A DNA stretch of 64,000 nt from NCBI GenBank assembly GCA_028286685.1, contig JAQBRA010000002.1, positions 65,073-129,072 of the forward strand, given 5' to 3'. The stretch is from Candidatus Adlerbacteria bacterium. Lineage in GTDB: Bacteria > Patescibacteriota > Minisyncoccia > Phycocordibacterales > SBAW01. Position 1 is the first letter of the stretch. The number at the start of each line of letters is the position of its first letter. The notes under the pieces were generated by a model that did not search any database, was not told where the DNA came from, and saw only the letters and a program-made list of their open reading frames with translations. Below are positions 13,416 through 61,725 of this stretch, in pieces. The position numbers and the translations under genes are program-made.

Positions 13416-14981
13416 CTAGTCGAGCTCAGGCTCTACCAGGCCTAAACGGATCAGGCGCGCCTGTATCGAGCCTTTCTGTCGGCCGAACTCTTTAACAAGT
13501 GCCGCTACCGACTTGCCCTCGCGGAACATTTCAGTGAGCTTGTCATCATCCTCGCGGCTCCACGGGCGGTACGCGTTGGGGAATTTTGCGCGCAATTTAT
13601 CGAGCTTACTGCCGTTCTCTTCTTTGTCTTTCCGGGCCGCTTCCTTTTCTTCCTGAACTACTTCGGGCTCGCGGCCTCCGGATGCTTTTATAAAATTCTT
13701 CTGGAGCACCGAGAGGTCTTCGGGCGGCAGTTTGCCAAATATATCTTCGGCCCCAAGCGACGCCGAGCGGAAGGCCGCGTCGCGCTCCAGAATTTCCGGA
13801 TGCACGCGCAGCGCCTGCTCGTTAAAGCCCAAAAGAAAAAGCCCTTCGAGCGTGCGCACGCGCGAAAGCGCTACGTAGCCCTGCCCGTACTCAAACGCGC
13901 CCGAGAGGTCCATAACCGCGGCATCGAGGCTCATTCCCTGGCTCTTGTGGACCGTCATGGCCCACGCCAGGCGCAGCGGCACCTGGGTAATCTGGGCCAG
14001 GACGCGCTTGCCGTCCTCTATGCGCCACTCCTCCTGGTCAGCCTCTATAAGCGCCCCTTGGCGAGTACGCACCAGAGGCCAGCCCGCAGGGCTCCAGGCC
14101 TCTACAACGCCCAGCGTGCCGTTAACGTAGCCATGCTCGTAGTTGTTGCGGGTAAACATGACCGCGGCCCCTACCTTAAGCACCAAAGTCTCGGGCGAGA
14201 GGCATCCGCGCTTAAGGGCCTCGACCAAAGTGGTAGAGCCCGAGGTGCGCATAGGAAAGGTGTGCACGGCGCCCTCAATCTGGCCCAGCGCGTCGGTGTT
14301 GATGCGGTCGACGTCGAGGTTGTGCGGATACAGCCGGGTGGCATTTTTAGGCGCGCCGTTCTTCTGGTAGCGGCTGCGCAAAAGCTCGCGATGCTCGTCT
14401 TCGAGTTCGCCCGAGCGCAGAGCCCCGAGCAATTGCAAAAACAAGCCGTCGTCTTGGCGGTGCTGCTCGTGCAAGTAACACACTAAAGGGTTAGCATCCT
14501 CCCAGGCAGTGGAAGCAAAGGCAAACTGCGATCGCTGATTTTTAGAAACAGGCGGCAACTGGAAAAAGTCTCCGACAAATACGACCTGCAGGCCGCCAAA
14601 CGGGCGATCCGAGCCGCGCAGGCTCGAGAGAGCGCGGTCGACCAAGCTCAGGAGCTTGGCATCGAGCATCGATACCTCGTCGATAATAAGCACGTGGGCG
14701 CCGCGTACGCGGCGCACCAGGGGCTCGCGTTCCAAGAGCGCCTCTATGTCCCAATCAGTCAATTCTTGCTTAATGCCCACCCCGCTCCAAGCGTGTATCG
14801 TCATGCCTCCCACGTGGGTAGCCGCAATGCCGGTCGAGGCAGTAATGGCAGGCTCGATCCCCCGCTCGCGCAGCCACTCCACGTAGCGGTTGATAACGTA
14901 CGTCTTGCCCGCGCCGGGCTCTCCGGTAAGGAATACGTTCGCTCCTGTTTTTAAGATTGTAAGGGCTTGTTCTTGAGTCAT
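13416..14981 (-). CDS. PIF1/RecD-like ATP-dependent DNA helicase with a C-terminal HTH
   Basis: Walker A GEPGAGKTYV, LIIDEVSML, and a PIF1-like C-terminal half. Confidence 0.7.
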   Translation of the reverse strand: MTQEQALTILKTGANVFLTGEPGAGKTYVINRYVEWLRERGIEPAITASTGIAATHVGGMTIHAWSGVGIKQELTDWDIEALLEREPLVRRVRGAHVLIIDEVSMLDAKLLSLVDRALSSLRGSDRPFGGLQVVFVGDFFQLPPVSKNQRSQFAFASTAWEDANPLVCYLHEQHRQDDGLFLQLLGALRSGELEDEHRELLRSRYQKNGAPKNATRLYPHNLDVDRINTDALGQIEGAVHTFPMRTSGSTTLVEALKRGCLSPETLVLKVGAAVMFTRNNYEHGYVNGTLGVVEAWSPAGWPLVRTRQGALIEADQEEWRIEDGKRVLAQITQVPLRLAWAMTVHKSQGMSLDAAVMDLSGAFEYGQGYVALSRVRTLEGLFLLGFNEQALRVHPEILERDAAFRSASLGAEDIFGKLPPEDLSVLQKNFIKASGGREPEVVQEEKEAARKDKEENGSKLDKLRAKFPNAYRPWSREDDDKLTEMFREGKSVAALVKEFGRQKGSIQARLIRLGLVEPELD

Positions 14982-17989: not shown

Positions 17990-19519
17990 TTAAACCCCGG
18001 ACGCCACGCCCCTAAAATGCTTCCATATCTCGTACATCGCCAAGGTATCGAGCTTGCAGTACTCGAGCATGTCCTTTTGCTTCTGCTCGGCCTCCTCGCC
18101 CTCAATTAGCGCGCGGGTCAGCTGGCGGTAGCCCTCTATGGCGTCGGTCCCGCTCTTAACCGGCAGCTCTTTGTACGACAAGCTCGGCACCAAGACGGGC
18201 AGCACCTTCTTGATAGAGGCACGGCCCATAAAGCCCGGGTGCACGTAGTGCTGGTGCTCCACAATATCCATAAGGTCGTAGGTGCGCTCCACCACGTTTA
18301 AGAAAAAGTCCTTATGCTCAGGCATCAGCGCGGCCATCTCCTTGTTGCGGCTGTTTTCAAACGCCTTGGACCACGATATAACCGTGCCCTTGGGGCCGAT
18401 ATGCGACACCAGCGCCTCGGCGATCTTTTCCGCCGGGTCGCCGCCCAATATCAGGTCGCCATAATGCTTAAGCTCGGCATCGGGTGCCTCGAGCACGTGG
18501 AGCGAATATTGAAAGACAATATGCTGGTAGGGCCGGTAGCCGCTAAAGGGCGGGATAGCTGTGGGATACGTCTCGTAGTCCAAAAAGTACAGCGGATACT
18601 CAAGCTTGTTTAGCTCCTCGGCAAGCCCCACCACATCAATGAGAGGCTCTTGCGAGAGATGCACGCGGACCTGGTTGAGCTTCTTTTCCGTAAGCCGGTC
18701 GTCATTCAGCGGCACATCCTTAACGTGCAAGACGCCGGCATGCAGCAGCTCTTCGAGATACTTTTTGCTCAGGCCAATACGGTTAAGGTCGTGGACGCTG
18801 TAGGCCGGCACGTCGGGGTTGATAAAGGCAAAGCTCGTGCAGTGCGCCGAGCGGCCCTTGTAGTAGCACGGGCAATGGCCCTCGGGCTGTACCGCCTGGC
18901 TCAGGTACTCTTGCGCATGCTTCATCTGATGCACCGCATTTTCCTGCGCCACCGCCATCGCCTCGGTCTTGTCCTCGAGTATAAAAAGGTTTGAGAAGTC
19001 CAAGTCGCCCTGGCGCACGTACTGCCTATTGAGCCGGACCAGGTACTTTTTATTGAGCTTAACGCCGCACGCCTCGACCACGTTTGCCTGGAAGGCCAGG
19101 TCGTACTCAAACTGCTCCTCTTTTTTCCTGTCCTTCCTGCCCTCTCCGTCCGCCTCAGACGAGGACATCTTTATCTCGTACAAGTCGTACGCCCCGGCAC
19201 CGGCGTTCCATACCAATACGTCGGTAGCGGCCAAGCAGGTGTCGGTGGCAAATACGGCCTGGAATAGTACCGGGGTCTGCTCGGCAACAAGCTTTTGAGT
19301 CAGCTCCTGGGCGCCCGCGTGGCGCTGCTCGATAAGGTAGCCGCCCGGAAACATCCCGCGCGCCAGCTCCTCGACCTCGTTGCCCATTTGGGCCAAAGCC
19401 TGTTCGAACTCCGATATCTCGTACTGGCTGTGTATGTCGGGCCGTTGGCGGCGCACCCAGGTGTTGTTAGGGCACTCCCTAAACATGATGTATTCGGTCT
19501 TGGAGAGCTTGGAGGCCAT
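17990..19519 (-). CDS. DUF2779 domain protein (Cas4/RecB-like nuclease fold)
   Basis: YFLDYETYPTAIPPFSGYRPYQHIVFQYSLHVL signature plus the Cys cluster CPCYYKGRSAHC. Confidence 0.55.
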   Translation of the reverse strand: MASKLSKTEYIMFRECPNNTWVRRQRPDIHSQYEISEFEQALAQMGNEVEELARGMFPGGYLIEQRHAGAQELTQKLVAEQTPVLFQAVFATDTCLAATDVLVWNAGAGAYDLYEIKMSSSEADGEGRKDRKKEEQFEYDLAFQANVVEACGVKLNKKYLVRLNRQYVRQGDLDFSNLFILEDKTEAMAVAQENAVHQMKHAQEYLSQAVQPEGHCPCYYKGRSAHCTSFAFINPDVPAYSVHDLNRIGLSKKYLEELLHAGVLHVKDVPLNDDRLTEKKLNQVRVHLSQEPLIDVVGLAEELNKLEYPLYFLDYETYPTAIPPFSGYRPYQHIVFQYSLHVLEAPDAELKHYGDLILGGDPAEKIAEALVSHIGPKGTVISWSKAFENSRNKEMAALMPEHKDFFLNVVERTYDLMDIVEHQHYVHPGFMGRASIKKVLPVLVPSLSYKELPVKSGTDAIEGYRQLTRALIEGEEAEQKQKDMLEYCKLDTLAMYEIWKHFRGVASGV

Positions 19520-19769: not shown

Positions 19770-21830
19770 ATGAACCTAATTGGCAAGGTCGTAAATGGGT
19801 ATGAAATCGTTGAATTTATCAACGACGGAGGTTTCGGCGTGGTCTACAAGGCCGAGAAAGAAGGTAAACTATATGCTCTTAAGCTCTTTCGTGAGGCCTA
19901 TGTACTCAAGGAATATCGCAACGGTGGAGACAATCGCATACAGCGCGAGATAGACATTTTGAAGTCGGCGAACCACAAAAGCCTCGTGAACTACGTGGAT
20001 AACTTCGTCACAGACATTGACGGCTCTGCACACCACTTCCTAGTCATGGAGTTCATTGACGGCACAAACCTGCGAACGATAATCGACGGTAAAGGAAAGC
20101 TCGATGAGAAGACTGCTCTCCAATATTTCAACCAGGTCTTGGACGGCCTAGAAGCCTTACATCACACACCTGTGGCCGAGGGGGTCTCGGGAGTTGTCCA
20201 TAGGGATTTGAAGCCTGAAAATATACTTATTGACGGGGCGGGCCAAGTGAAAGTGTCCGATTTTGGCATCTCGAAAATCATCGATTTTACCTCTATAACA
20301 AGCACAGGTGACTTTATTGGCACGAGCCCTTACATGTCACCCGAGCAGATAGTCGACAGCAAGCACGTGGACCGGCGCTCCGATGTATACGCCCTCGGGG
20401 TACTGCTTTATGAAATGCTGACAGGCCAACATCCTCACGACTATCAATCTGAACCTGAGCTCATAGACAAGATAAAGAACGAACCCGCCATACCACCACG
20501 ACGCAGAGTTGCTGATATAAACAACGAAACCGAAAACGTTATCTTGCGATGTCTTGAAAAGCAACCGTACGGGCGTTTTAGTGACGTCGCGCAGTTGCGC
20601 CAGTCGCTCAACCAAAAGTCTGTCGTACTTACAAAGAAAAAATACGACCTCACGCCGCGATTTGTGCTACGGCTCTACGACGACAAAAGTACCTTGGAGA
20701 AGTACCTCCCCACTCACCAAAGTAAGTTCTTTGTAGAGTTCCCTGCAAACCTTGCCGATCATCAAAAGGGCCTCCTAAAAATTGTGCGTGAAAACAAGAA
20801 TGTGATTATGATTGTCGACCCAGCAACAGTGCGTCTCGCGTACGACACTTTCTCTGATGTCGAGGGTCTAAAACGACTTCCCTACGCAAGGGAGGATTTC
20901 CAGCCCATTACCCCAGACAACTTAAAGGACTACAAGGAGCAGAAGGAGTACGTAAAAAAAGTGCTGGATACAGAAGCAGAAATTGGTGCCGACATCTTAC
21001 TCGCACCCTTTCATTACACACACAATAGTAATATTTCGCTTACAACGGCTAACCCCCATGCCGAATGGTTCGACCTCGACGTGAAGCTTTTAAAAGAGGC
21101 TATCGACTATCGTGATGCAACCCCAGCACTACGTGACAAGCCACTATACGCCGGTATCTGCGTTAATCATACGTCGTTGAGCAACGATCGTGATTTGCGC
21201 CACATACTCAATACATTTTCAATTTTTGATTGCGACGGATACATGGTCTATGTCGATTGCATAGACGAAAACACCTCTCGCGCCACACTATCCAACTACA
21301 TCACTCTCTTGCGGGAACTCCAGTTAAAGACTGGGAAGCCGGTTATTGCCGCACGGGTAAATGGAATTGGTCTCGGCTTATTGTGCGCCGGCGTGGCAGG
21401 CTTTACCTCTGGCGCCGCACGCTTTGAAACCTTTAACGAGGACTTGTACAAGGTGGAGAGGCCATCTTTCAACCTGTACGAGCGCTACTATTACCCCACA
21501 CTGATGAAAGCAGTTGCCATCTTGCGCAAAGACCCCGCCCGTTTCGACCTCATTCGCGACAAAATAGGAATATGTACATGCCGTTATTGCGGCGGCAAAG
21601 ATGCAGCAGGATCGATACTGGCGGCAAATAATAAACTCCACTTCCTCGAAATGCGCGCTCAGGAGGTAGCGGAAATCGCTGCCTTGCCCGAAGGCGAACG
21701 GATCGGGCACTTCATCCAGAGAATAAGTACAGCGTTGGATAATTACGCTCTGCTCACGCCGAGCGTCTTTAAGCCATCCGACTATGCACACCTCAACGGT
21801 TGGAAAGATGTCTTTCAGAGGCTAAAATAG
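19770..21830 (+). CDS. Ser/Thr protein kinase fused to an uncharacterised ~400-aa C-terminal domain
   Basis: Kinase motifs are present: VYKAEKEGKLYALK (VAIK-like), HRDLKPENIL, DFG, SPE. Residues ~290-686 match no family I recognise; they alternate beta and alpha segments and contain a CTCRYCGG motif. Confidence 0.8.
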   Translation: MNLIGKVVNGYEIVEFINDGGFGVVYKAEKEGKLYALKLFREAYVLKEYRNGGDNRIQREIDILKSANHKSLVNYVDNFVTDIDGSAHHFLVMEFIDGTNLRTIIDGKGKLDEKTALQYFNQVLDGLEALHHTPVAEGVSGVVHRDLKPENILIDGAGQVKVSDFGISKIIDFTSITSTGDFIGTSPYMSPEQIVDSKHVDRRSDVYALGVLLYEMLTGQHPHDYQSEPELIDKIKNEPAIPPRRRVADINNETENVILRCLEKQPYGRFSDVAQLRQSLNQKSVVLTKKKYDLTPRFVLRLYDDKSTLEKYLPTHQSKFFVEFPANLADHQKGLLKIVRENKNVIMIVDPATVRLAYDTFSDVEGLKRLPYAREDFQPITPDNLKDYKEQKEYVKKVLDTEAEIGADILLAPFHYTHNSNISLTTANPHAEWFDLDVKLLKEAIDYRDATPALRDKPLYAGICVNHTSLSNDRDLRHILNTFSIFDCDGYMVYVDCIDENTSRATLSNYITLLRELQLKTGKPVIAARVNGIGLGLLCAGVAGFTSGAARFETFNEDLYKVERPSFNLYERYYYPTLMKAVAILRKDPARFDLIRDKIGICTCRYCGGKDAAGSILAANNKLHFLEMRAQEVAEIAALPEGERIGHFIQRISTALDNYALLTPSVFKPSDYAHLNGWKDVFQRLK

Positions 21831-21838
21831 CAGTAAGC

Positions 21839-22495
21839 ATGTTCCAGCTTGAAAAAGAGATGATTCCGGTGCTCAAAAGGGATCTATCGAGGATCTTTGG
21901 TGCAGTTCACGCTGCCGAAGAGTTCGTAAGCGGGAACGGTCGTCCAGATTTAGTATTTGCTCGTTTCACAAGCGAGACGTCCTCACGAGGCGCACTTGAT
22001 TACGAGACCCTCCACCTGCTCGTAAGACATTTAAATAAAGAAGGGCGCGTGTACCATGTGGACGAAGTGCTTGGAATTGACCTGCAAAACAGAAAGCGGG
22101 TACATGGCATACTCGATGTGTTGAGCAACTATGGCTTTGTGGAGTACCAAGACGACACCCATTTCATCGTCCGGAGGAAGTACCAACCAGTGGCAGACGA
22201 ATTTGTTTCGATAGAGGCAAAATTAAGTGACTGGAAGTCTGGTGTCAGTCAGGCCATAAGATACAAGTCTTTCTCTAACAGCACGTACCTTGCCATTTCC
22301 GAAGAATATTTAGACCGTGTAGATAGGCAAACCTTGCGCGCCAGCGGCGTTGGGCTTATTAGCGTATCAAGGGAGAATGCTTCGCTTATTTTAAAGGCAA
22401 GAACAAGTAAACCTAAAAGTATGGTATCCAACTACTACCTTACTGAACGCCTCGTTGACACAGTAAACAGTTCTCGAGCTAGTGCAATAGTTTAA
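21839..22495 (+). CDS. hypothetical protein with a PD-(D/E)xK-like motif set and a possible winged-helix tail
   Basis: GRPDLVFARF...VSIEAKLSDWKSGVSQAIRY resembles restriction-endonuclease-fold D...ExK...Q spacing. It lies just after the kinase gene. Confidence 0.35.
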   Translation: MFQLEKEMIPVLKRDLSRIFGAVHAAEEFVSGNGRPDLVFARFTSETSSRGALDYETLHLLVRHLNKEGRVYHVDEVLGIDLQNRKRVHGILDVLSNYGFVEYQDDTHFIVRRKYQPVADEFVSIEAKLSDWKSGVSQAIRYKSFSNSTYLAISEEYLDRVDRQTLRASGVGLISVSRENASLILKARTSKPKSMVSNYYLTERLVDTVNSSRASAIV

Positions 22496-22596
22496 GCTTT
22501 TTTGCGTATCATTTTGTGGTCAGTAAGGAAACCTATTCCCAAGGCGACAAGTCATCCGAAACGGCGCATGTAAAGAGAACAGGGAGTGCTTCTTGA

Positions 22597-22935
22597 TTAT
22601 TTCAATGTCTCGCAAGCAAGACCGTCTTTGTCCGCGTCGAGACGGTGAGGGTCAGAGCTAGGGCCGCCATTTGCAATAAAGAAGGCTTGCGCTTGTGCAT
22701 GCGTAGCAAAGTCAGGGCAGTTTTTGTCGACAAAGCCCGATTTAGCTGCAGTCTTGGCGACAGTCTTTGTAACTACCTTTGCCTCAGTTTTAACCGCAGG
22801 CTTGCTGTGGCAGTGGTAGTTTCCTGTTTTGCTCTCGGTATGGCAGCCTTTTGCGTCGGTGCGGCCGGGGGAAGCCAACGCCACCGCCGGAGCGATGGAA
22901 ATGGCGAGTACTAAACCGGCGAGCAGGGTGCGCAT
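22597..22935 (-). CDS. excalibur calcium-binding domain protein (secreted)
   Basis: Signal peptide and a C-terminal DADKDGLACE motif. Confidence 0.5.
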   Translation of the reverse strand: MRTLLAGLVLAISIAPAVALASPGRTDAKGCHTESKTGNYHCHSKPAVKTEAKVVTKTVAKTAAKSGFVDKNCPDFATHAQAQAFFIANGGPSSDPHRLDADKDGLACETLK

Positions 22936-22936
22936 A

Positions 22937-23152
22937 TTAGCCAATGGTGAAAGCAATAACGAGTGCAGCACCAAAGACGACCGCTGCCATAACGATTGCT
23001 ACAGCCATATTGCCCTGCCTAAGCTCCTCCCACTCGTTAATAGGGGTAATGAAGGAGAACAATTTAACCAAAATACCAAGGGAAATTGCCATCGAGATGG
23101 CGCCAGTAATAGCCCAGCCGAACGTTATAAAATACTGTGTAAATATGTCCAT
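22937..23152 (-). CDS. DUF350-like small membrane protein
   Basis: Two TM helices flanking NEWEELRQGNMAVAI. Confidence 0.4.
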   Translation of the reverse strand: MDIFTQYFITFGWAITGAISMAISLGILVKLFSFITPINEWEELRQGNMAVAIVMAAVVFGAALVIAFTIG

Positions 23153-23206
23153 GGCCCCAGAGTAGCAAATGTGGCGGATTTAGCTACCTACTTAAACTAA
23201 TATTGA

Positions 23207-23235
23207 CATAATAAACTTATGTATGTAATGTATTC
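23207..23235 (+). promoter_or_regulatory. sigma70-like promoter (TTGACA-N17-TAATGT) heading an ORF-poor stretch
   Basis: Seen in the sequence. Confidence 0.35.
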
Positions 23236-23702
23236 GCTGGCTGTTCCCTTTCGTCGGTTTGTCTAGTTGAGCCCCGAAAGGGGTTTCAGCTGCAATATCG
23301 ATGGAGGTATAAGATGGACGTTGTTCAATGGTTCTGTAGTAGCAGGAGTAATATGGCTGTTTGGTTGTGTAGATTCCTTGGGTGCGAGGTAAAGCATAGC
23401 AATCCCTCTCCCGTGGTTATACCACCCCTACCAGTTCCTCTTGTTACAAGACCACTGCCAAGCTCGACTTGTCTCAAGTCGTACTGCAGATGCAACCCCC
23501 ACCTTTGGATTTTTCATCTGGTCATGCAGCATCCTGGGATTAATACTCCTGGCATCCGTCGCAAGATGGGCTGCTACTGCACAGATAGAATTATTCAAGG
23601 AATCTTAGTCGACCTACGGACACAAGGGTATGTACGTATGCACGGCTACGGCCGATGGTCTACGTACTGGCCCAATGCCGTTCTGGTCGACAAATAGCCA
23701 AA

Positions 23703-23737
23703 CCGCGCGCTGCAAGGCGCGCGGTTTTTATTGTTTT
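23703..23737. terminator. hairpin terminator (CCGCGCGC-tgcaag-GCGCGCGG + T-run)
   Basis: It ends the plus-strand noncoding stretch and abuts the stop codon of the minus-strand DUF2726 gene. Confidence 0.5.
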
Positions 23738-24261
23738 AGAACCAATTTCTTTTCTACCTCCCCTTTTATAGCTTCCTTATCCAACTTATCGGCTCTTAAG
23801 TGCAAAATGGATACGCCAGCATCAGCCATCATGCTATCTACGAGGTCGTCCCTATCCATCCGACGAGGGATAGAGTGGCTGCCGCCATCTAGTTCTATAA
23901 CTAGTTGAGGCGCCGCACGCTCTTTGTCGCAGAGCAAAAAGTCGACCGATTTCCTATCTATCCGGCTTCTCAGCCTCATCCGCTCGCGGTAATCAAAGTC
24001 CTTGTTAGGCTCGATAAAATGAGTAAAATTGACCTGGGCAAATATATAAAACCTGTCGCCATACAGCTCAAGCAAAATCTTGTACATCTCAGCCTCAGTC
24101 TTGGTATCGAAAATTGAGGCCTTCTTATTAAAATATTTAACAGCCTCTTCTTTGCTTTGTATGAGCAAGGCTAAAGCAACCAATCCAACAAGAAGCACTG
24201 CGGTAATTGCCCAAACCCACCAAGGGATATGAGGCAACCCAAGTAATTCAAAAATGGACAT
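23728..24261 (-). CDS. DUF2726 (nuclease-related, restriction-endonuclease-like fold) protein with an N-terminal TM
   Basis: KSVDFLLCDKERAAPQLVIELDGGSHSIPRRMDRDDLVDSMMADAGVSILHLRADKL matches the DUF2726 core. Confidence 0.55.
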   Translation of the reverse strand: MSIFELLGLPHIPWWVWAITAVLLVGLVALALLIQSKEEAVKYFNKKASIFDTKTEAEMYKILLELYGDRFYIFAQVNFTHFIEPNKDFDYRERMRLRSRIDRKSVDFLLCDKERAAPQLVIELDGGSHSIPRRMDRDDLVDSMMADAGVSILHLRADKLDKEAIKGEVEKKLVLKQ

Positions 24262-24262
24262 A

Positions 24263-24484
24263 CTACTTAGCTAAAGGGCCATTATGAGTGGGCGCCTCTG
24301 TAGTCTTCTTTGAGACTATCGGGATATCTTTGCGAGTGTTTTCATCTATCTGCTCAAGCAAACTTACTATCCTATTTGTTTTCCAGTACCAAGTGAGCAA
24401 CTCTCTTACTACAAAAAAGCCTACAAGCACCAAAAAGACGAACAAAAGCGGGTCGGTCCCAAAACTTGGGAGGTTTAGATTCAT
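24263..24484 (-). CDS. small membrane protein
   Basis: One TM helix. Located 1 nt downstream of the DUF2726 gene. Confidence 0.3.
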   Translation of the reverse strand: MNLNLPSFGTDPLLFVFLVLVGFFVVRELLTWYWKTNRIVSLLEQIDENTRKDIPIVSKKTTEAPTHNGPLAK

Positions 24485-24601
24485 GCCACCAGTATATCCC
24501 CGTATGAAGGACTCAATATTACGATGTGCACAGCTACTGATTTAATTACGTAAACAAAAAACCGCCTCACCGAGAAGGTCCCGGTGAGGGGAGGTCTTCT
24601 G

Positions 24602-25216
24602 CTAGTGGGCGGTCAATAACACTCTTCTGCCCGTGCCGAGAATATAGGGACGCGAGATCGGATCGTTGTCCCATTCCTCATTGCGTCGCTCTGCCCTCTC
24701 CTGCACTTCGTCCATGCACATATCAATGAGCCACTGTGGTAAAACGAAGCAGCCATACATGATACGGGTCTCGTCGTAGTACCGAACTTGTCCGTACTCG
24801 ATGGCCCGAATGAGGGTATGAATGAACGCATTGAACGCCCATTCGACGCAGTGGTTATGATCTGGGAGGAGGGGACCTCCGCGCCGATCATGCCCCTTTG
24901 CTACGTCTCTCGCCCAAGCGGCCATATACGATACCAACTGTGCATCGACGGGTACGAAATCTTTAGTGGCAAACGCCTTCTCGATTGCACTGAAGAAAGC
25001 CTTGCCCAGCGGGTCGGGCGGCAACTCCTTAAGGGAGCTTAGGTCCGCAGTTCCGTATTCCTGCACCAAAACATAGTCCCAGAGACGCTTTATGTTAGCT
25101 TCTTCATTATCCCAAAAGCGCATGATGTGCTCTTTTCTCAAACCCCCTTTGTTCGGCAGAGGGTAAAACCGTACTATAGCTTTTTCTATTATATACCAAA
25201 ATATATATTTTGTCAA
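24602..25216 (-). CDS. hypothetical protein
   Basis: The ORF has protein-like composition. I cannot recognise the family. Confidence 0.35.
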   Translation of the reverse strand: MTKYIFWYIIEKAIVRFYPLPNKGGLRKEHIMRFWDNEEANIKRLWDYVLVQEYGTADLSSLKELPPDPLGKAFFSAIEKAFATKDFVPVDAQLVSYMAAWARDVAKGHDRRGGPLLPDHNHCVEWAFNAFIHTLIRAIEYGQVRYYDETRIMYGCFVLPQWLIDMCMDEVQERAERRNEEWDNDPISRPYILGTGRRVLLTAH

Positions 25217-25438
25217 CTAAGACTGTGCCGAAAAAATCTTGGAGGGGCTGGTGTGGCCCGACAAAAGGCGAACATCCGCTAAGGGCAGATTGAGGTGGGC
25301 GGCTACCAGCTCGCGCACGCGATGGTTGGCCAAGTTGCGCTCGGCGGGCTCTTTGACCCAGATTTTAAGCCGCCCCTTGGGCAGCTCTTCGACCAGCTCC
25401 TTTTTGGCCCCCGCCACCACCCGAACGCTTACATACAT
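25217..25438 (-). CDS. DUF167 (YggU/UPF0235) family protein
   Basis: MYVSVRVVAGAKK...LKIWVKEPAERNLANHRV...LLSGHTSPSK. Confidence 0.5.
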   Translation of the reverse strand: MYVSVRVVAGAKKELVEELPKGRLKIWVKEPAERNLANHRVRELVAAHLNLPLADVRLLSGHTSPSKIFSAQS

Positions 25439-25776
25439 ACTTACTTCCTTACTTCCGCTTTCCTCCCGGCCAGCAGACGGGGCACACGCCCGTGCCGCGG
25501 TATTTGTGGCCACGGGTGCACGTGCGCCAGACATTCTTAGTTTTTTTGATCATAAGTATCACATCTCCACTGCCCCAACACTACACCTATTCCCACCCTC
25601 ACGACTTTTTATTCTAGCTTTCTGCAGAAGCCTGGAGTGGATTCGGTAGGCTTTTGCTCTGCCATATGCCCTTATAGTACACCCGACAAGAAGCCTTCAA
25701 GTCCCTCCCTCCTGCATAACAAAATAATAAAAGTGGCCGATCCGAAGCGTCGGAACAGCACAGCAAGGCGAACCAG

Positions 25777-25800
25777 ACGCCCGGGCGTTTTTCTTTTGCC
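25777..25800 (+). terminator. terminator-like hairpin, short member of a three-copy family
   Basis: ACGCCCGGGCGT followed by TTTTCTTTTGCC. Confidence 0.35.
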
Positions 25801-25882
25801 CCTGTCGTACGACAATTGCCAAATAGGCCTATTTATTGTATTTTGCCTGCAGACTAGAGAACAACCACAGAGAGGCTAGCTC

Positions 25883-26479
25883 ATGACAACCCTTGTAGCG
25901 CCCCTTACCGGGGAGAGCTTGGAGACCATCCAGTCGCTCGCGCGGAACGTATTCCTGGATGGCGAATGCTATGCGTTTGCCATCGGGCTCAGCCGGGGCC
26001 TTGGCTGGTCTATGGTCGGGCTTATGGAAGGGCCGGTGATCCGGCACGCTCTGGCCTACAACCCAAAAAAGCCCTCCGGCCTGGGCGTGCTCTACGATGT
26101 GCGCGGCAAGCTGGCTCTAAACGAGCCGGAGCTCGGCAACCCTTTCCACCATCGTCCGCCGTATATACTGCGCGAAGTAACCGAGGACGACCTGCGCGCC
26201 GTGCGACCCGTACACGAGCGCAGCATTGCTATGGCCGGCCGGATGGCAGAGGCCATGTGGCCGCACCTGCCCTGGAAACAGGGCCTGGCCGTCCGCGCCA
26301 AGGCATTTGCCGACGCGCTTGCTGCCCTCAGCCGCGAGCACGGGTTTTGGATACGAAGCCCTTACGACACCATGCGCCCCATCCTTTCGGAAGCGCACGG
26401 CGACGAGCGGGGCTACACGATCCGCATACTCGACGACGGGATGGCGTACACTATCGACCGCAGGCTTACCGACGCATGA
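25883..26479 (+). CDS. hypothetical protein (198 aa)
   Basis: The ORF has balanced composition. The overlapping R-rich frame 25966..26739 was rejected. Confidence 0.4.
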   Translation: MTTLVAPLTGESLETIQSLARNVFLDGECYAFAIGLSRGLGWSMVGLMEGPVIRHALAYNPKKPSGLGVLYDVRGKLALNEPELGNPFHHRPPYILREVTEDDLRAVRPVHERSIAMAGRMAEAMWPHLPWKQGLAVRAKAFADALAALSREHGFWIRSPYDTMRPILSEAHGDERGYTIRILDDGMAYTIDRRLTDA

Positions 26480-28147: not shown

Positions 28148-29590
28148 TTAGTATACCTCTATGGCCTGTGTAAAGGGAGTCTCGTATGGCTCGACTTTGA
28201 GGGTGCCGCGGGCGCGGCGACCATTGAGCAAAAAGCGGCTGAGTATCTTGTAGCTATCGAGGTCAAACACCACCTCGTGGCGCTGCGAGGATACTTCGCC
28301 CTCTGCGTACTCGACGGTCTCCACCAGGCACCACTGGTTGACCACGTAGGCCGTACCCTCGCCCTCGTCGTTCTCGTCGCGCACGACTATGGCGCCCTTA
28401 AATGGCCAGGATTTTATCTTGTAGCGGGCAAAGGCCGCGGCTACACGCTTGTTGTAGCTCGCGGGCGTTTCGGCACCCGTGCACGCTCCTGCGCACCATT
28501 CGAGCTGCCGGCCCCAGCAGGCCCCGCCGCCCTTCTCAAGCCCCAGAAGCTTGCCGCACAGGCCCTTTTCTTTAGCGAGCGAGCGCAAAAAGGCCTTGGC
28601 TTGTGCGCGGGTGCGGCATACGCCCAAGATATTATTAAAGTCCTTGGCTTCAATTTCCGAGCGGTACTCGACATCAGCCGCCGTGTAACCCTCGGCAGTG
28701 GCCCGGGAAACGATAAGCGCCAGCTGTTTGTGCTTGCGCAAAACGCGATTGTAGGTGGGCAGCAACTCCTTGACGAGCTTGGATTCCAAAAACAGTGCGC
28801 CCAGCTCGCCTGAAGTTTCGCGATATTCGATATCGGCCGTGTCCTGGCACATGCGCATTTCTTTGGCAGATGCGTGATCGTTTGAAAAATGGGACAGCAC
28901 CCGCGTACGCAGCGTAACGCTCTTGCCCACGTACAAGACCTCGCCATCTGCTGCGTAGAAAATATAGACGCCGGGGCGGTTGGGTATGGCGCTGATTACC
29001 TCGCGGCTGAGCTGCGAGGGCAGCGTGTTGGACTTAAGCGCGCGATCTATGGCGCCTCTAAGCGCCTCGGTGCCCAAGCCTTTTTCGGCCGAGCGCAAAA
29101 ACTCCCACACCACCTGCGCGTCGTCCATGGCGCGATGCCGGTTGGCGCACGCTATGCCGTGCGCGGCCATGACCTCGTCTAGGTTGTGGCGCGCCTGCAG
29201 CGGGTACAAGGCGCGCGAGAGCTTGACCGAGCATAGGGTTTTAGCTCGATAGGGCTGCTCGATGCGAGCGAACTCGGCCTTGATAAACGCGTAGTCAAAG
29301 CGGGCGTTGTGCGCCACGAATACGGCGCCATCGAGCATTTCGCGGATGTCTTCTGAGACCTGGTCGAAGGTCGGGGCATTCTCCAGCTCCTCATTGCTGA
29401 TGCCGGTAATGCCCATGATGACGTGCGAGATGCGGCGCTCGGGCCTGATGAGCGAGTGATATTTCTTGACCACCCTGCCGTCTTCCACGCGCAATATGCC
29501 TATCTCGATAATCCCGCCATGCGCCGGACTCATGCCAGTCGTTTCAGTATCGACTATGGCGTACGTTCTTGATTTGAGGCTGTGTACCAT
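28148..29590 (-). CDS. DnaQ-like 3'-5' exonuclease fused to a GIY-YIG nuclease domain
   Basis: N-terminal YAIVDTETTG...HNARFD (DEDDh exonuclease), then PGVYIFYAADGEVLYVGKS (GIY-YIG). Confidence 0.8.
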   Translation of the reverse strand: MVHSLKSRTYAIVDTETTGMSPAHGGIIEIGILRVEDGRVVKKYHSLIRPERRISHVIMGITGISNEELENAPTFDQVSEDIREMLDGAVFVAHNARFDYAFIKAEFARIEQPYRAKTLCSVKLSRALYPLQARHNLDEVMAAHGIACANRHRAMDDAQVVWEFLRSAEKGLGTEALRGAIDRALKSNTLPSQLSREVISAIPNRPGVYIFYAADGEVLYVGKSVTLRTRVLSHFSNDHASAKEMRMCQDTADIEYRETSGELGALFLESKLVKELLPTYNRVLRKHKQLALIVSRATAEGYTAADVEYRSEIEAKDFNNILGVCRTRAQAKAFLRSLAKEKGLCGKLLGLEKGGGACWGRQLEWCAGACTGAETPASYNKRVAAAFARYKIKSWPFKGAIVVRDENDEGEGTAYVVNQWCLVETVEYAEGEVSSQRHEVVFDLDSYKILSRFLLNGRRARGTLKVEPYETPFTQAIEVY

Positions 29591-39436: not shown

Positions 39437-39916
39437 TTACACATTTCCAGCAAGTTTTTCAGCATAACCACTAAGTTCTATATTAGGATTTAGTTGTTTA
39501 AGATCTTTAACAAGTCTACCAAGAGTTTTTTCTGAAAACAGAGTGATGCGAAACTCAATATACTTTATACTCCCATCCTGGTCTTTATAAAAAATATAAA
39601 GGGACCGAAATGATCCTTTAGCTGTTTTATAAGTTGCCTGGTCATTGATTTCAGTTATTGAGTCGATATTAACGGTTCTTCGATAAAAAAAGAGATAGAC
39701 GTATGTGAGAGTGTTGTTTGTGATAGATGCATATGAATAACAAGTGGTAATAAGTAGAAAAAAGGCCCAAAATATTACCCAAATTAATAGCCCCTTAATA
39801 GCGACATCCGTACCAAGATCAGGGTTACGGTTTAGATATAAAGTAAATGCCATTAATACACCAGCACTAACTCCAATCATAAGAATACTCTTCCAGTCAG
39901 TAGTATACTTTTTCAT
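39437..39916 (-). CDS. membrane protein directly downstream of the RHS toxin gene and overlapping it (candidate cognate immunity protein)
   Basis: Three to four TM helices. Its start overlaps the toxin stop codon by 4 nt. Confidence 0.45.
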   Translation of the reverse strand: MKKYTTDWKSILMIGVSAGVLMAFTLYLNRNPDLGTDVAIKGLLIWVIFWAFFLLITTCYSYASITNNTLTYVYLFFYRRTVNIDSITEINDQATYKTAKGSFRSLYIFYKDQDGSIKYIEFRITLFSEKTLGRLVKDLKQLNPNIELSGYAEKLAGNV

Positions 39917-42900
39917 TTTTTATCATTCTTAACCTTAAAAGCACTCATGAGATTTTGGACTGCCTTTGCTTGTGTTGAATTTGTAGGAGCAAAAGCATTT
40001 CGAATACTCGAAAAGAGTGAAGCTTGAGACTGTCCACCTTGGTACATTTGACCTGCATTACTTTGAACATTTCCATAGTAAGTATCAATACCTACTCCAA
40101 AGGCAGCCTCTTGCGCATACCGTTGCGCATGAGCACCAGTATAATATGTACTTCCTAGAACTTTAGTGGCTTGTACTCCTCTTACCTGAGGGAGACCTTT
40201 TAGATAACCAGCCGTCAACCCAGTGACTGCTCCATCAGCGACAGCTTGCACTGCACCCTCTGGAGTAATGGTGCCATTTTGCAAGTAGTTTTCTCCGAGG
40301 GAAATGGTGGAAGCTGTTCCTGCGCCCGCCCACGGACTTACAGCTGTAGCAAGTCCTATAACTGCTCCCTTACTCATTGATGTGCCGTATGCTCCAAAGC
40401 CACTAAATTGGCCTGATTGGAGATCAGAAATACCTTGGTATATACCTCCTCCAATACCACCCAGCACGAAACCAGCCGCGAGCACTTGAGGGATAAATCG
40501 TCCAGATGGATCCTTATTAAGGATCGGATTATTCCCTGCGTAAGAATAACTATTCTGTAGTTGAGGATTGATAAGCGCAGCCTTTCCGTCCTGAGTCTGC
40601 CCTATCTCCCAGAAGACTGGGTCTTGGCTCAAGAACTGACCACGTCCCCCGTCGTAATAACGTGCATTTAGATAATTGAGCCCCGAGAGCTCGTCCGCCA
40701 CCTCCCCTATATACTCCCGCTGGCTCACGTCCGTGCCAGTTTCTGCCTGTACCGAGCCGAAGGGATAGTAGGCCAGGGATTGGACCGGAGCGCCACTCTG
40801 GTCGGTTACCACATGGGTAGAGCCCAGGTGGTCGGTGTGTATGTACCGGGTAGTGCCCCCTGCCCCGCCGGAGATGCTTATCAGGCGTATATCGTCGTAG
40901 TAGACCGTGCCGGTGGAGTCCTTTTGGAACACGAAGCCCGTGGTCATCGCGCCTGCGATGCCCAAGTCCGCTAGCGGGATGTCTATGCTGTACCAGGTGT
41001 TGGCCGCTATGGTGCCGCCGGAGACGTAGGAAGAGAGCTGGACCGTGTTGGCCGGAGAACCGCCTGAGTTGTAGCCGATGACTTGCAGGAGCGGCGAGGC
41101 GGAGGTGGAGCGGAACGCCAGGCGCAGGTGAGTAGAACCTACCGTGCTTATGCCCGCATTATGAAGATATAGCCCGCCCCACGCTTCGGTGTACGTAACC
41201 GCTATGGAATTAGAGCCTGCGTATGTCGGACTGGTATTGCTGAAGTTCTGCGTCGAGCCCCACGACCAGTTGTCCCATGAGGTGGTATCGGCGTAGATAG
41301 TCTGGGTTGTGGAAGCCGTGGGCGACCCAACGCTCGCGGATGATTTTTCCACGGTCGACACCAGCATGCCGGCGGCGTAGATGTTCTTAGTAGTAGTGCC
41401 CGCCCCGCCCGCCATGGCGCTATAGAGCCTGTTGGGGAAATAGGTGGTCTTTGAGCCCTCAACCAGCTTGATGCGGCTGCTTTCATGATCGTAGGAGTAC
41501 GTGGAGGTTGCCGTGCCGCTGCCCGCGCTTGCGAGGCGGTTGGCATAGTCCCATGCGTAGGCAAATCCGCCGCCCGAGGCAAGGTTGCCGTTGTTGTCGT
41601 AGGCATAGGTAGAGCTGGCGATGCTTGTAGGCGCGTGAGGATTAGCGTAGCCAGTGCCCGCGTACGCATACGCTCCCACGTCGGACTTGGCAATAATATT
41701 TCCCAAGATGTCGTAGTTGTACGTCTGCGTATAGCCGCCTGAGGCCGTGGACGTGCTTGTCGAGCCTACGGACCAGAACGAGGACGGCGACGACATGTTG
41801 TTGTAACGAGTCGCCAAATAATTGTCGCTGCGGGCCGCACTATGCACGCGTATTTCGTCCAAGCGCCCATCAAGGCGCTCGCCGCCCGCGTAGTCGGCAC
41901 CAAAGCGCAGGACGTCGTTGGAGTTAAAGGTAGTGCCGGGCGTATCGGCCGTATAAGTATTGGCGCTCGAGCCGTTGGCGCGCACCGACGCCTCTGCAGT
42001 GGTGCTGGCCGGGTCGTGGCGCAGCGCGACATAGTACCAGGTGCCGGTTGCCATAGAGCCCGCATAGGTGCCCGCGTACGAAGTGCTGCTGGCAGCGCTT
42101 ATCCATTCGCCATCGAGCCGGTTAGTCGGGCTCGATACGTATGAGGAGTAGGAGCGCCAAGGCGAGGCAGTGTGCTTCTTGCTGATGAGCCGGGCATTTT
42201 CGCCACGCGCGCTCGGCGTCGCATCCATATATACCCAACCCTCAAGCGTCATGGACGCTCCTTCAAAATTGCTGCTATCGGGCACGTCGATAGTGTCGTC
42301 GACACCATCGAAGTTGGCAGCGGCGCCGAACTTGCCGGTAGTGGTACCTATGGCTGACGCCACATAGTTTGAATACATGGTGCCGTTATGGCTTCCCGAG
42401 GTTGAGTCTTTGATAGCTCCCCCGGTAGCGCTATTTTCCTCCAAATGCCAGACGCCCTCAGTATCGGAGTCATACACCTCCCGAGCTCCATAAGTGTTGC
42501 CCGCAGAATAGCAGTTAGCATCCGGGTTGCCGTAATAGACGTAGTATTGCGCAGACGAACTCGCAGAAAGGGCGTTGCCGGTCGAGAAGTGGAGCTGCCC
42601 TGCTCCGGCACCATAGGACACCAGGTCTATGGGCAGCTCAGTCGTGCCGTCTTGCTTGGTTACGCGGATATCGCAGCCATTGGCTTTGACCCCGGTATGG
42701 AAGCTTATAGGCAACAGCGACAAGTCGAGATAGACGTCTTTAGTATCTTCCAGCACCTTGGTAGAGCTGGCTGCCACCGGCACGCGATAATCCCAGTTCG
42801 GGTCGTACCAATCGGAAGAGGGGCCGACTGCATACTGTGCCTGAGCCAGACGGTACAAATCATCGTAATCGTAACTTGCTGTTTTTGGCGCTGTAGAGCT

Positions 42901-45900
42901 TGCCAGGTCGGAAATCTCCACAATATTGCCGACAGGGTCGTAGGTATAGTTGAAGTCCTGGAGGGTAAGGCCGGAGGAGTTTTTTGCCTGGACTCGCGAA
43001 AGTCGGTAGAGCGCAGCGGCATTATAGGTGCTGGTAGAGACATCGCCGTTGGCGTATGCCACGACCGCAGGCTTGCCCGTAGGGGCGTAGTCAATCCGCG
43101 TTACAACGCCCGCAAAAGAAGGCTCTCCGCTTTCTTTCTTCTGTACGGCATCAACAAGCCCGGCAGCATTATAGAAGTACGCAACCTGCGCCTGGTCGGG
43201 ATACGTCACGAGCGTCTGATTGCCTTGGCGGTCATACTCATAGGCAGTTGCAAATGCGGTCGTAGTACCGACCAAGGTTGAAGTAGCAGCCCTAACAAGG
43301 CCCGCAGGATTATATGCATATTGGACAAGAGAGTTGGTGGAGCTTGCCGTGCACAGCCTCCCTACCCCGTCTTGGCAGGAGTCATAGACGTAGGACACCT
43401 CCGTACCCGCCTGACCCGTGTAATTTTCTGATACGGGACGATTGAGCACATCGTAGGAATACTGGACCGTTTGGCCCTTTGCATCGATTTTTTGGGTAAG
43501 ATTGCCCGCCGCATCATAGCTATAAGTGGTCGAGCCGAATGAGGCATCTGCCGGAGCATGGAGATCTCCCGCAGAAGTGCGCCGGCCGAGGCCGTCATAC
43601 GCAAAGCTGCGCACATTGCCCGCAGCGTCGGTCAGACTCACAAGACTGCCCGTAAGATCCCACGCATAGGTAGTGGTATACGGCGTCCCCGAAAGATACT
43701 CAACAACGCTTATAAGATTGCCGCGCGCGTCTTTTGTATATTCTTTTGCCTTATCATTAGCGTCCGTAGTGGTAGTCTTCCATTGGTCATAGGCATTGGT
43801 GGTCGTGCCCACGGCAGTCCCAACCCCCACCGCGCGCTGGAGCGGATCATACAGGTAGTTCGTGTAGAGCGTCCCAATCGAAGTGGCAGAGGAACGCGAG
43901 GAGCCCGAGGCAAAGTACGGCAAGCTTTCGGAAGACATGAGGCCCCTCCGGTCATACTTCCAATCCCTTACTGCAAACGTGCCCGCAACCTCGGCTTGCG
44001 AGCGCTCCTGGAATTTGCGGTTTAAGCCGTCAAAATACGTATAGCGCGAGGTGGTTGTAGCAGCGTTTAAGTACCTAGTTTCCTCTACGCTGGTGGAGCC
44101 CGGCGTGCTGCTGGCGCTGTACGCATAGGCAGTCGTAGTAGCGAGCGTACCAGTTAAAGGATCGGGCTCTTGCACAGCGAGCACCCTGTCCAGACCATCG
44201 TAAGCTTTTACATGCAGGCGCCCGTTGGGATCGGCAATCTGGCGCACCTGGCCGGAAGAATAGTCGTACAAATACCCGGTTGCCTGACTAAGCGCGTTGG
44301 TGGTAGTCGCTGGATACAGGTTGAACGCATCATAGGCGTAGGCTGTAAGATTTGACTTGGCGTCACGCTCCTGAGTTACCAGGCCATAGGTACCGTACAC
44401 CTTGGTGGTAGACGCGTAGGCAGAAGCGGCAATCCAATCCTCCTTTTTAGTCAGATTACCTTTGACCAGACTGCCAAGCGTCTGGTTGTCATAGTAATAG
44501 CGCGCCTCTTTTATTTTGGCTCCGCTCTGATTATGCGTAAGCTCGCTTGACGGAAGACCGACAAGAGTCGAGCTCGCCGCGTAGGAGATAGTCGTTGAGG
44601 CAAGATCGCTGCCAGTATCGCTAAAAGTGCCGTCGCCCGAGCCGGTTACCTCGCCCCAGTCGATCTTTTGAACCAGGTTACCATTGGTATTGTTGTAGGC
44701 ATACGAGACAGCCTTGTCTTTATGGTCGGAATCACCGTCATACTCCTGCTCGAGTGCCTGTGTTGTTTTGACGAACCTAGCTTCCCCGCCACGGTCATGA
44801 GTCTCCCACTTATTTATATTTGACTTAAACAGGTCGCCGGAACTATCGGAAACATCCGTACGGAATACTTTGCCTATCTTTGAGCGGTCGTCAGAGTATT
44901 CTCCCAAAGAAGATTCTGAGGCATTGCCTTGGTGATAGCGGGTAACGACCGTATCCCCTACTGCATCAGTCTTGGTTATAGACCCAAAGCCCGCAATGCG
45001 CCTATCAAACGGATTGTCGAAGTAAAAGTCACCGTCTGCGTACTCGAACGTATCGGTACTGGTCGCAGAGAGACCGTCACTGATTTCAACCTTCTCAAGG
45101 GTCGTTAGTGTCGCTGGAAGCGAGGGATTGAGCAACTCATCGCTGTCATCCCTGTATTGCGCACTGCCTTTGTAGGCCACACTAATAGTGCCGCCTGTCT
45201 GATTAATCACCCGGGAGAGCAAGTCGGGTTCCTGGCCCTGGGATATAAATTGACTGTCCTGCTCCCAGGAATAGAAATGGGGCTGGCCCCAACCATACGC
45301 GACAAAATCGGCAATACCGTCGCCATTAAGGTCTGCAAACCGCACGCCGCCTTCTTGTCCGCTGTGCCGCAGCGCGACAGGCGCCCACCTGGAGTGATCT
45401 TGAATAAACCCAATGCCAGTATTGAGGTAAACGCTATTTCCCAGCCAATGAACAACCGGAGGGGTTGGATACGGCCCCACCTGAGCCTCGCTTGAGACCA
45501 CATCGGGCAAGCTATCTCCATTTATATCCACCAGGCGCGCAGATTGGCCGCCTATGTCTCCCGGCAACGACCACGCAGGATCAGATGACCAGCCTGAGCC
45601 GGTATTGATATAAACGGAACCTTCTTGTGTTAGGTCGGCAAGATTGTCGCCATTGATGTCGGCCACCTGGCCGCGACTATTACCGTTATGGTTACTGTTT
45701 CCAAAGAGTATAGTTGTTGTCGGGAACGCCCACCCAACAGCCGTGGTCCAACCAGCCCCCGTATTGAGATATATGCTTTGCGAGTATGTTGTAGCCCCAG
45801 TGAAGGCGTTTATATTTGCGAAAGAGCGCAACACGTCAATCAATCCGTCGCCATCTATATCGCCGAAGCGCACGCCATTATCATACAAGCCCTCGAATCT

Positions 45901-61538: not shown

Positions 61539-61654
61539 ACCTCACATCCTGGAAAACCCTCGGTTTTCCCAATCCTTCCTCCACGGGGAACTCCCGTTCC
61601 CCGACCCCTTCCCGGTTCAAATCCAAGTCAGCGCTTCATCACTATGTTCTTTTG

Positions 61655-61725
61655 CTGCCAGACTTGGATTCGAACCAAGATAAACGGATTCAGAGTCCGT
61701 TGTCCTACCATTAGACGATCTGGCA
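61655..61725 (-). tRNA. tRNA-Gln (anticodon CTG)
   Basis: Hand-folded cloverleaf: acceptor TGCCAGA/TCTGGCA, D-arm GTCT-AATGGTA-GGAC, anticodon arm ACGGA-CTCTGAA-TCCGT, T-arm CTTGG-TTCGAAT-CCAAG, discriminator G. CCA is not encoded. Confidence 0.8.

Follow-up and report, generated by a model that had tools for sequence, protein, structure and literature searches.

A serine/threonine kinase fused to a divergent barrel of the tRNA-guanine transglycosylase type and coupled to a PD-(D/E)xK nuclease: a probable two-gene conflict module of bacteria

The DNA analysed here, in the following called the window, is a stretch of 64,000 nucleotides from contig JAQBRA010000002.1 (positions 65,073 to 129,072), which is assigned to Candidatus Adlerbacteria bacterium. 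It contains an open reading frame (ORF) for a protein kinase with a long C-terminal tail, directly followed by a gene for a predicted nuclease. The tail is predicted to form a barrel of the tRNA-guanine transglycosylase (TGT) type, and the two genes are therefore referred to as the kinase-barrel gene and its partner. The following features, given with their positions in the window, are the subject of this paper.

19770..21830, plus strand: whole kinase-barrel gene from the ORF list, encoding a 686-aa protein composed of Ser/Thr kinase and TGT-like barrel
19800..20591, plus strand: Hanks-type protein kinase domain, residues 11-274, with intact catalytic motifs (Pfam PF00069, E=4e-52)
20625..21827, plus strand: predicted (beta/alpha)8 barrel of the TGT superfamily with C-terminal zinc subdomain, residues 286-686
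20817..20828, plus strand: 'DPAT' motif with D350 at the C-terminal end of strand beta3, invariant in the kinase clade
21573..21641, plus strand: putative zinc-binding cluster C602-x-C604-x-x-C607-x16-H624, invariant in 83/83 sequences
21839..22495, plus strand: partner gene for a predicted 218-aa PD-(D/E)xK nuclease with an inserted winged-helix domain
22001..22171, plus strand: winged-helix insert of the partner nuclease, about residues 55-111

The glycine loop, the lysine of the VAIK motif and the HRD, DFG and APE-like motifs are all present in the kinase part (GGFGVVY 20-26, ALK 36-38, HRDLKPEN 144-151, DFG 164-166, SPEQ 190-193) and are near-invariant among the homologues, which identifies it as a Hanks-type Ser/Thr kinase. 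Its top PADLOC matches are the defence kinases PD-T4-6 (1.3e-68) and Mad6 of the MADS system (4.9e-64). These matches end at about residue 290-312 and thus cover the kinase part only. The likeness to PD-T4-6 and Mad6 lies in the kinase domain, for which their models are the best match, whereas these models extend neither to the barrel nor to the partner. According to its description PD-T4-6 consists of one gene, while a second gene is obligatory here.

A first-pass annotation of this DNA had described a complete Hanks-type kinase followed by an uncharacterised tail of about 400 aa, and this description is borne out. The kinase domain spans residues 11-274 and the flagged stretch, 20625-21830, corresponds to residues 286-686 plus the stop codon. 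The motifs quoted for the tail could all be located (ILLAPF 409-414, AGICVNH 461-467, FDC 486-488, YMVYVDCID 491-499, VIAARVNG 525-532), as could the glycine-rich stretch GIGLGLLCAGVAGFTSGA at residues 532-549. The tail is also unannotated, as had been stated: it has no match in Pfam, NCBIfam or PADLOC, and none among PDB sequences, either by phmmer with the single sequence or by profile. A public protein of 100% identity (P0001) carries 'serine/threonine protein kinase' as its sole annotation, and the public records of the proteins identical to kinase-barrel and partner are labelled 'Candidatus Adlerbacteria bacterium'. With the tail alone as query 126 homologues were found. Nearly all of them are kinase fusions of ~686 aa from many phyla, again annotated only as 'serine/threonine protein kinase'. 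Since the tail has this number of homologues and 34 invariant positions in an alignment of 83 sequences, it is genuine and not a chance extension of the ORF.

The structure of residues 286-686 was predicted from the 83-sequence alignment (mean predicted local distance difference test, pLDDT, 90.3; predicted template modelling score, pTM, 0.90). The model consists of eight beta-alpha units, followed by a beta-hairpin and a helical C-terminal part. A fold search with this model gave the following structural matches and scores.

Bacterial tRNA-guanine transglycosylase 3UNT: 22.3 (293 residues aligned)
QTRT2: 20.3
DpdA, the DNA preQ0 insertase: 18.6
Archaeosine TGT (ArcTGT): 16.4
Cap10, a protein of the cyclic oligonucleotide-based antiphage signalling system (CBASS): 16.0

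The topology of the predicted model is of the TGT type and the scores are well above those of generic triosephosphate isomerase (TIM) barrels. Judged by the predicted fold, residues 286-686 represent a strongly diverged branch of the TGT/ArcTGT/DpdA/Cap10 superfamily that had not been annotated before. The first-pass annotation, which had proposed such a structure prediction and fold search, is partly supported in its interpretation of the tail. Its guess of a barrel was right, but it had dismissed a TGT/DpdA-like TIM barrel, and this dismissal does not hold, since the model is closest to TGT structures and the CxCxxC...H cluster is assigned to the zinc site of that superfamily. It had also raised the alternative that the tail belongs to a well-known family of ordinary metabolic function, commonly found fused to kinases. 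The fold is indeed well known; the role and the architecture are not.

The zinc cluster had been quoted as CTCRYCGG-X15-H. The cluster itself is present (residues 602-609, with H624), but the spacing has to be corrected, as 14 residues lie between GG and His and 16 follow the third Cys, not 15. C602, C604, C607 and H624 align to C302, C304, C307 and H333 of E. coli Tgt, with a spacer of 16 versus 25 residues. The four ligands are 83-97% conserved in the broad family of fused and standalone relatives. According to this alignment the late CxCxxC...H cluster is the putative zinc site of the TGT superfamily. The FDC motif was considered as the TGT nucleophile motif. This was rejected because D487 varies among the homologues and the alignment places the segment opposite 'FDGY' in strand beta6 of Tgt.

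The TGT profile PF01702 matches neither the window protein (E<=0.1) nor any of ten fused or standalone relatives (E<=1), and the standalone relatives have no match in Pfam, PADLOC or NCBIfam. When a narrow family profile was compared with E. coli Tgt by hhalign, the CxCxxC motif alone was aligned. A broadened profile (94 sequences, effective sequence number Neff 7.1) gave a near-global alignment in a sensible register with a probability of only 4-9%. Deepening the Tgt target profile brought little gain, the listed homologues of E. coli Tgt (at least 120) all being at least 83% identical. This hhalign alignment was used as a tentative residue map only. Its register matches the strand order of the barrel model. 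Anchors are found in beta1 ('TPRF' in the window protein, 'TPCF' in E. coli Tgt), beta4 ('GADIL' and 'GSDIV'), beta5 ('LYAGIC' and 'LFGIIQ') and beta6 ('CDGY' and 'FDGY'), as well as in a 'KP' ahead of beta7 and in the zinc motif. At the end of beta3 D350 is aligned, at the same low probability, to D89 of E. coli Tgt, which corresponds to D102 of the Z. mobilis enzyme. D350 is thus the likely, alignment-based equivalent of TGT Asp102. The DPxT motif to which it belongs is well kept across fused and standalone relatives (D 91%, P 93%).

Other pocket positions appear to differ. At the sites of Z. mobilis D156, Q203 and G230-L231, which read guanine or 7-deazaguanine in TGT, the kinase clade carries H415, C464 and D496 according to the tentative low-probability alignment, and these three positions are not conserved across the broad family. 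Strand beta8, 'GFTSG' (544-548), has no acidic residue at the site that the tentative map assigns to Z. mobilis D280. The conserved acids nearest to this nucleophile site are E553 (E/D/Q in relatives) and E557. In the wider family of 94 sequences few positions are conserved to at least 75%, mainly D350 of DPxT, L370-P371-Y372 (LPY), Q402, P413, a few glycines, Y574, the four zinc ligands and W678. Further polar residues are invariant within the kinase clade, namely T353, R355, H415, D437, K439, C464, D489, D496, R529, R551 and E557, mostly located at or near strand ends. The residues needed for the exchange of guanine or 7-deazaguanine appear to be missing, and we read this as a pocket of retained TGT type with a changed ligand specificity, as far as can be judged from sequence.

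In the mechanical ORF call the partner gene begins at TTG 21800. Most likely, however, it starts at ATG 21839, as in the homologue alignment and in the public entry P0272 (218 aa). Pfam has no domain for the partner protein, in which D37, E126-A-K128 and Q138-A..Y142 are invariant. Together with the predicted model (pLDDT 92.3) these residues assign it to the PD-(D/E)xK type (signature D...ExK) with a QxxxY motif and a restriction-endonuclease-like fold. Structural matches of the model are NucS (11.2), the restriction enzyme PaqCI (10.6), an XisH-like protein, Can2, SdaI, AspBHI and DpnI. The winged-helix insert matches RPA32C and MarR/ArsR in the structure search. Wherever an intact locus offers sufficient sequence downstream of the kinase-barrel gene, a homologue of the partner directly follows it. 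This holds for the inspected contigs L001, L003, L004 and L005 and for about 45/53 loci from a genome scan, the two genes being separated by -52 to +16 nt. A third small ORF upstream of the kinase gene (L001, L003) was considered as a further member and rejected, as it is conserved only in closely related loci.

The barrel is not confined to kinase fusions. A search of its profile against 1.84 billion representative proteins yielded 381 clusters, many of which are standalone proteins of 390-430 aa. The first-pass annotation had suggested looking for such proteins, and their neighbourhoods were inspected. A nuclease of the partner type is located upstream of the standalone TGT-like gene in L006 and L064 and convergently downstream of it in L063 and L065 (E=1e-43, 3e-41), where a PIN_3 gene in addition overlaps the end of the TGT-like gene. 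The L065 cassette separates the S10 and L3 genes of a ribosomal-protein operon. The variant architectures are as follows.

L063 3411-5733 and L065 5001-7302: three-gene variant of standalone TGT-like gene, overlapping PIN_3 gene and convergent gene for a PD-(D/E)xK winged-helix nuclease
L061 6001-7674: P0253, in which a partner-type PD-(D/E)xK domain without winged helix is joined N-terminally to a TGT-like barrel (listed in 92 blocks of the collection by the index, with 24 contigs read)
L068 5001-7186 and L070 6983-9029: distant standalone TGT-like gene, followed by genes for an Xre/MbcA/ParS antitoxin and a RES-family NAD+ phosphorylase toxin

L070 is the Gordonia plasmid pSMJS1.1 (NZ_CP123382.1). 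The set of TGT-like, Xre/ParS and RES genes is a possible tripartite toxin-antitoxin or defence module. Since nuclease, PIN, RES and kinase contexts vary around the barrel, the barrel is the constant element and the nuclease its commonest partner, with kinase, PIN and RES as alternative toxic add-ons. In our reading the older core is the TGT-like barrel with the nuclease, to which the kinase is one of several additions beside PIN and RES/Xre.

The genes next to the module were inspected as well. Gabija GajA/GajB and a resolvase are adjacent in L004, an integrase and a type III-like methylase/helicase pair in L063, a serine recombinase and a pilin of a type IV secretion system in L005, and a NERD protein in L001. 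Type I restriction-modification genes adjoin the module in seven loci, several of them closely related, and AbiEi/AbiEii in three to four; a PD-Lambda-3_A-like gene is also found adjacent. Clustering of the flanking ORFs revealed as recurrent neighbours only type I restriction-modification, AbiE, the PD-Lambda-3_A-like gene and regulators. Homologues are carried by three mobilizable plasmids. No phage homologues were found in IMG/VR (pattern scan) or INPHARED (tblastn). The host range is patchy and includes Patescibacteria, Bacteroidota, Chlorobiota/Ignavibacteria, Calditrichota, Bacillota, Pseudomonadota, Desulfobacterota and Planctomycetota, as well as one record labelled archaeon. The module is spread horizontally through many bacterial phyla. 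In L053, L055, L056 and L057 the kinase-barrel gene is fragmented or the partner truncated, and the genomes with a broken module include the complete genome of Paraflavitalea speifideaquila, which suggests that the module decays frequently.

Taken together, these data point to an undescribed, horizontally spread conflict module, probably anti-phage, and not to ordinary metabolism. We lean modestly towards the view that the TGT-like branch, the Hanks kinase and the PD-(D/E)xK winged-helix nuclease form a self-contained, horizontally spread two-gene module of defence islands and mobile elements. The specific mechanism by which the barrel would act as sensor and its partners as effectors is more tentative, and we rate it somewhat below an even chance. 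The canonical TGT pocket, with D350 and the polar residues at the strand ends, and the zinc subdomain would bind nucleic acid. There the barrel would capture a flipped-out or free base or a nucleobase-like ligand, which is probably not guanine or 7-deazaguanine. This capture, triggered by invading DNA or RNA, would license the partner nuclease, and in the kinase clade the same event might switch on the fused kinase, so that host or phage proteins are phosphorylated and abortive infection follows. We prefer this sensor-effector scheme because interchangeable PIN, RES and kinase partners typify systems in which the sensor is the constant part, and because the residues for exchange of guanine or 7-deazaguanine appear to be missing. 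The wider idea of a new class of immune sensor, in which the TGT-like barrel recognises some feature of the invader's nucleic acid, perhaps a modified base, and controls interchangeable effectors (PD-(D/E)xK nuclease, PIN RNase, RES NADase, fused Ser/Thr kinase), is possible but doubtful. We take as shown the TGT-superfamily fold with its zinc site and one conserved pocket Asp, the intact kinase, the obligatory partner with its complete nuclease signature, the exchangeable toxic partners and the mobile and defence-type surroundings. The defence role, a sensing rather than modifying barrel and the direction of signalling are all inferred.

Several observations weigh against this scheme. The sequence relatedness to TGT is marginal, and with an hhalign probability of 4-9% the residue equivalences are tentative. 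The computed isoelectric point of the barrel is neutral (7.2). No PADLOC model covers barrel or partner. The window is not an obvious defence island, the neighbours being a DUF2779 protein, an Excalibur-domain protein and a DUF2726 protein. Finally, restriction-modification would account equally well for a nuclease that is strictly coupled and has an intact active site.

The last point leads to the main rival, the other explanations being less likely still. Following a restriction-modification logic, a DpdA-like barrel would mark host DNA with a non-canonical base, the partner would cut unmarked DNA and the kinase would serve ATP-dependent regulation. The strict coupling to the nuclease and the nuclease-barrel fusion protein agree with this proposal. 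It would nevertheless require a catalytic barrel, while the Asp at the site of Z. mobilis D280 is lacking and the residues reading 7-deazaguanine appear to be replaced, both according to the tentative map. Neither queC/D/E or folE nor a gene for a DpdB-like ParB ATPase recurs in the flanks of the 53 loci. The module also occurs in metagenome-assembled genomes of Patescibacteria, which are generally metabolically reduced. The association with PIN, RES/Xre toxin and kinase fits abortive infection better, and phage homologues, which are known for DpdA, were not found in IMG/VR or INPHARED. We therefore regard restriction-modification as unlikely. A comparison with the type IV restriction enzymes AspBHI/MspJI and DpnI is meant only in the sense of a similar way of working. 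They couple or fuse a base-flipping reader to a PD-(D/E)xK nuclease, AspBHI and DpnI are among the structural matches of the partner, and P0253 is a nuclease-barrel fusion. Their reader is however an SRA or winged-helix domain and not a TGT barrel, and they have no kinase.

The overlapping genes in operons resembling those of toxin-antitoxin systems, the interchangeable toxic partners and the one module inserted in a ribosomal-protein operon (L065) could also be explained by toxin-antitoxin or addiction logic. The barrel would then be a large antitoxin or regulator which sequesters nuclease, PIN or RES, and the TGT fold a scaffold for which no ligand chemistry is needed. The pocket Asp and the zinc site are however conserved family-wide and a dozen polar residues at strand ends are invariant within the subfamily, which argues for ligand binding or catalysis. 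Moreover, the RES-linked loci already encode their own Xre/ParS antitoxin. This explanation is improbable, more so than restriction-modification.

Cap10 of type IV CBASS (PDB 9NTN) suggests protein modification as a further explanation. It reportedly conjugates a nucleobase to the N-terminus of the CD-NTase. In analogy, the barrel could transfer or hold a nucleobase that is attached to a protein such as the kinase or the nuclease. Cap10 shares the fold and works with the QueC-like Cap9 and a CD-NTase. Neither of their genes occurs in any inspected neighbourhood. Cap10 has lost the zinc site that the kinase-barrel family keeps, retains the 7-deazaguanine-reading residues D73/S74/D122/K154, and has a catalytic pair, D248/H226, without an evident counterpart here. 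We consider such a function very improbable. That the protein simply modifies tRNA for translation, as a transglycosylase under the control of its kinase, is scarcely credible. The tRNA enzymes TGT and QTRT1/2 are the closest structures, but there is no sequence match to PF01702, and the genes are scattered by horizontal transfer and have often become pseudogenes. The obligatory nuclease partner and the neighbouring defence or mobile genes also speak against it, and the substrate-reading residues appear to be replaced.

Compared with the known members of the superfamily, the kinase-barrel family is only 13-14% identical to Tgt (PDB 3UNT/1Q2R) and QTRT1/QTRT2 and has no PF01702 match. The Cys-to-His spacer of 25 residues in Tgt is reduced to 16, and the family is kinase-fused and nuclease-paired and not a universal housekeeping gene. 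With DpdA (PDB 7UI4) of the Dpd modification-restriction system the fold is shared, but the Dpd operon has more than ten genes versus two here, and DpdA has phage homologues. The Dpd partners (DpdB ParB-like ATPase, DpdC, preQ0/7-deazaguanine supply) were found neither in the gene lists of five kinase-clade loci nor as recurrent members of the flanking-ORF clusters. By structure and zinc site the domain belongs to the TGT superfamily. It lies outside the PF01702 family, and outside the Dpd system and type IV CBASS as well, because their defining partners are absent. In the searchable literature, which is incomplete and thus no proof of absence, we came across neither a kinase-TGT fusion nor a TGT-like/PD-(D/E)xK module. 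What is new is an unannotated branch of the TGT superfamily in a new architecture, which is probably a conflict system.

To our knowledge, TGT-fold proteins had for a long time been known solely as tRNA-modifying enzymes. DpdA in DNA modification and Cap10 in protein deazaguanylation within CBASS are recent evidence that the fold was repeatedly recruited in phage-host conflict, and the kinase-barrel family would be the third independent recruitment. As a defence system it would represent a new type of sensor or enzyme and a new route to switching on bacterial Ser/Thr kinases, and a DNA-modifying barrel may reveal a new DNA base chemistry. If the sensor reading is true, a family of undescribed anti-phage systems exists across bacteria, with one record labelled archaeon. 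Several hundred proteins annotated as 'serine/threonine kinase' or 'hypothetical protein' gain a domain assignment and a testable two-gene unit.

The GC content of the window falls to 0.48-0.50 at 20-26 kb, in contrast to 0.55-0.61 (about 0.58) in the flanks. This stretch, 20000-26000, has the appearance of a small islet acquired by horizontal transfer. Neither an integrase nor a flanking tRNA was seen for it, the only tRNA of the window being located at 61654-61725. The islet contains the kinase-barrel and partner genes together with the following ones.

22597-22974, minus strand: Excalibur-domain protein
23728-24261, minus strand: DUF2726 protein
24602-25216, minus strand: unannotated ORF of 204 aa

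The DUF2726 neighbour has a weak match to DpdF (E=0.023), which was treated as chance. Divergent from the kinase gene lies a gene for a 509-aa DUF2779 protein (17990-19519, minus strand, E=2e-38). It has no PADLOC match and is absent from the other inspected loci. The islet is flanked by a gene for a PIF1/RecD-like helicase (13416-14981, minus strand) with weak PADLOC matches to typeIV_RecD and PDC-S68, and on its other side by one for an RNase_T exonuclease fused to GIY-YIG (28148-29590, minus strand).

The window also encodes a protein of 2534 aa resembling RHS and Tc toxins (39913-47520, minus strand) with SpvB, TcdB_toxin_midN, FG-GAP, RHS repeat and Laminin_G_3 domains. At 38-40 kb, a region which spans the 3' end of the RHS gene and a small downstream ORF (39437-39916), the GC content falls sharply to 0.37. 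This pattern would fit a swapped C-terminal toxin tip with its immunity gene. A GC content of ~58% and a large RHS toxin give the impression of being unusual for a Patescibacteria genome, and the assignment of the bin to Adlerbacteria may therefore be wrong.

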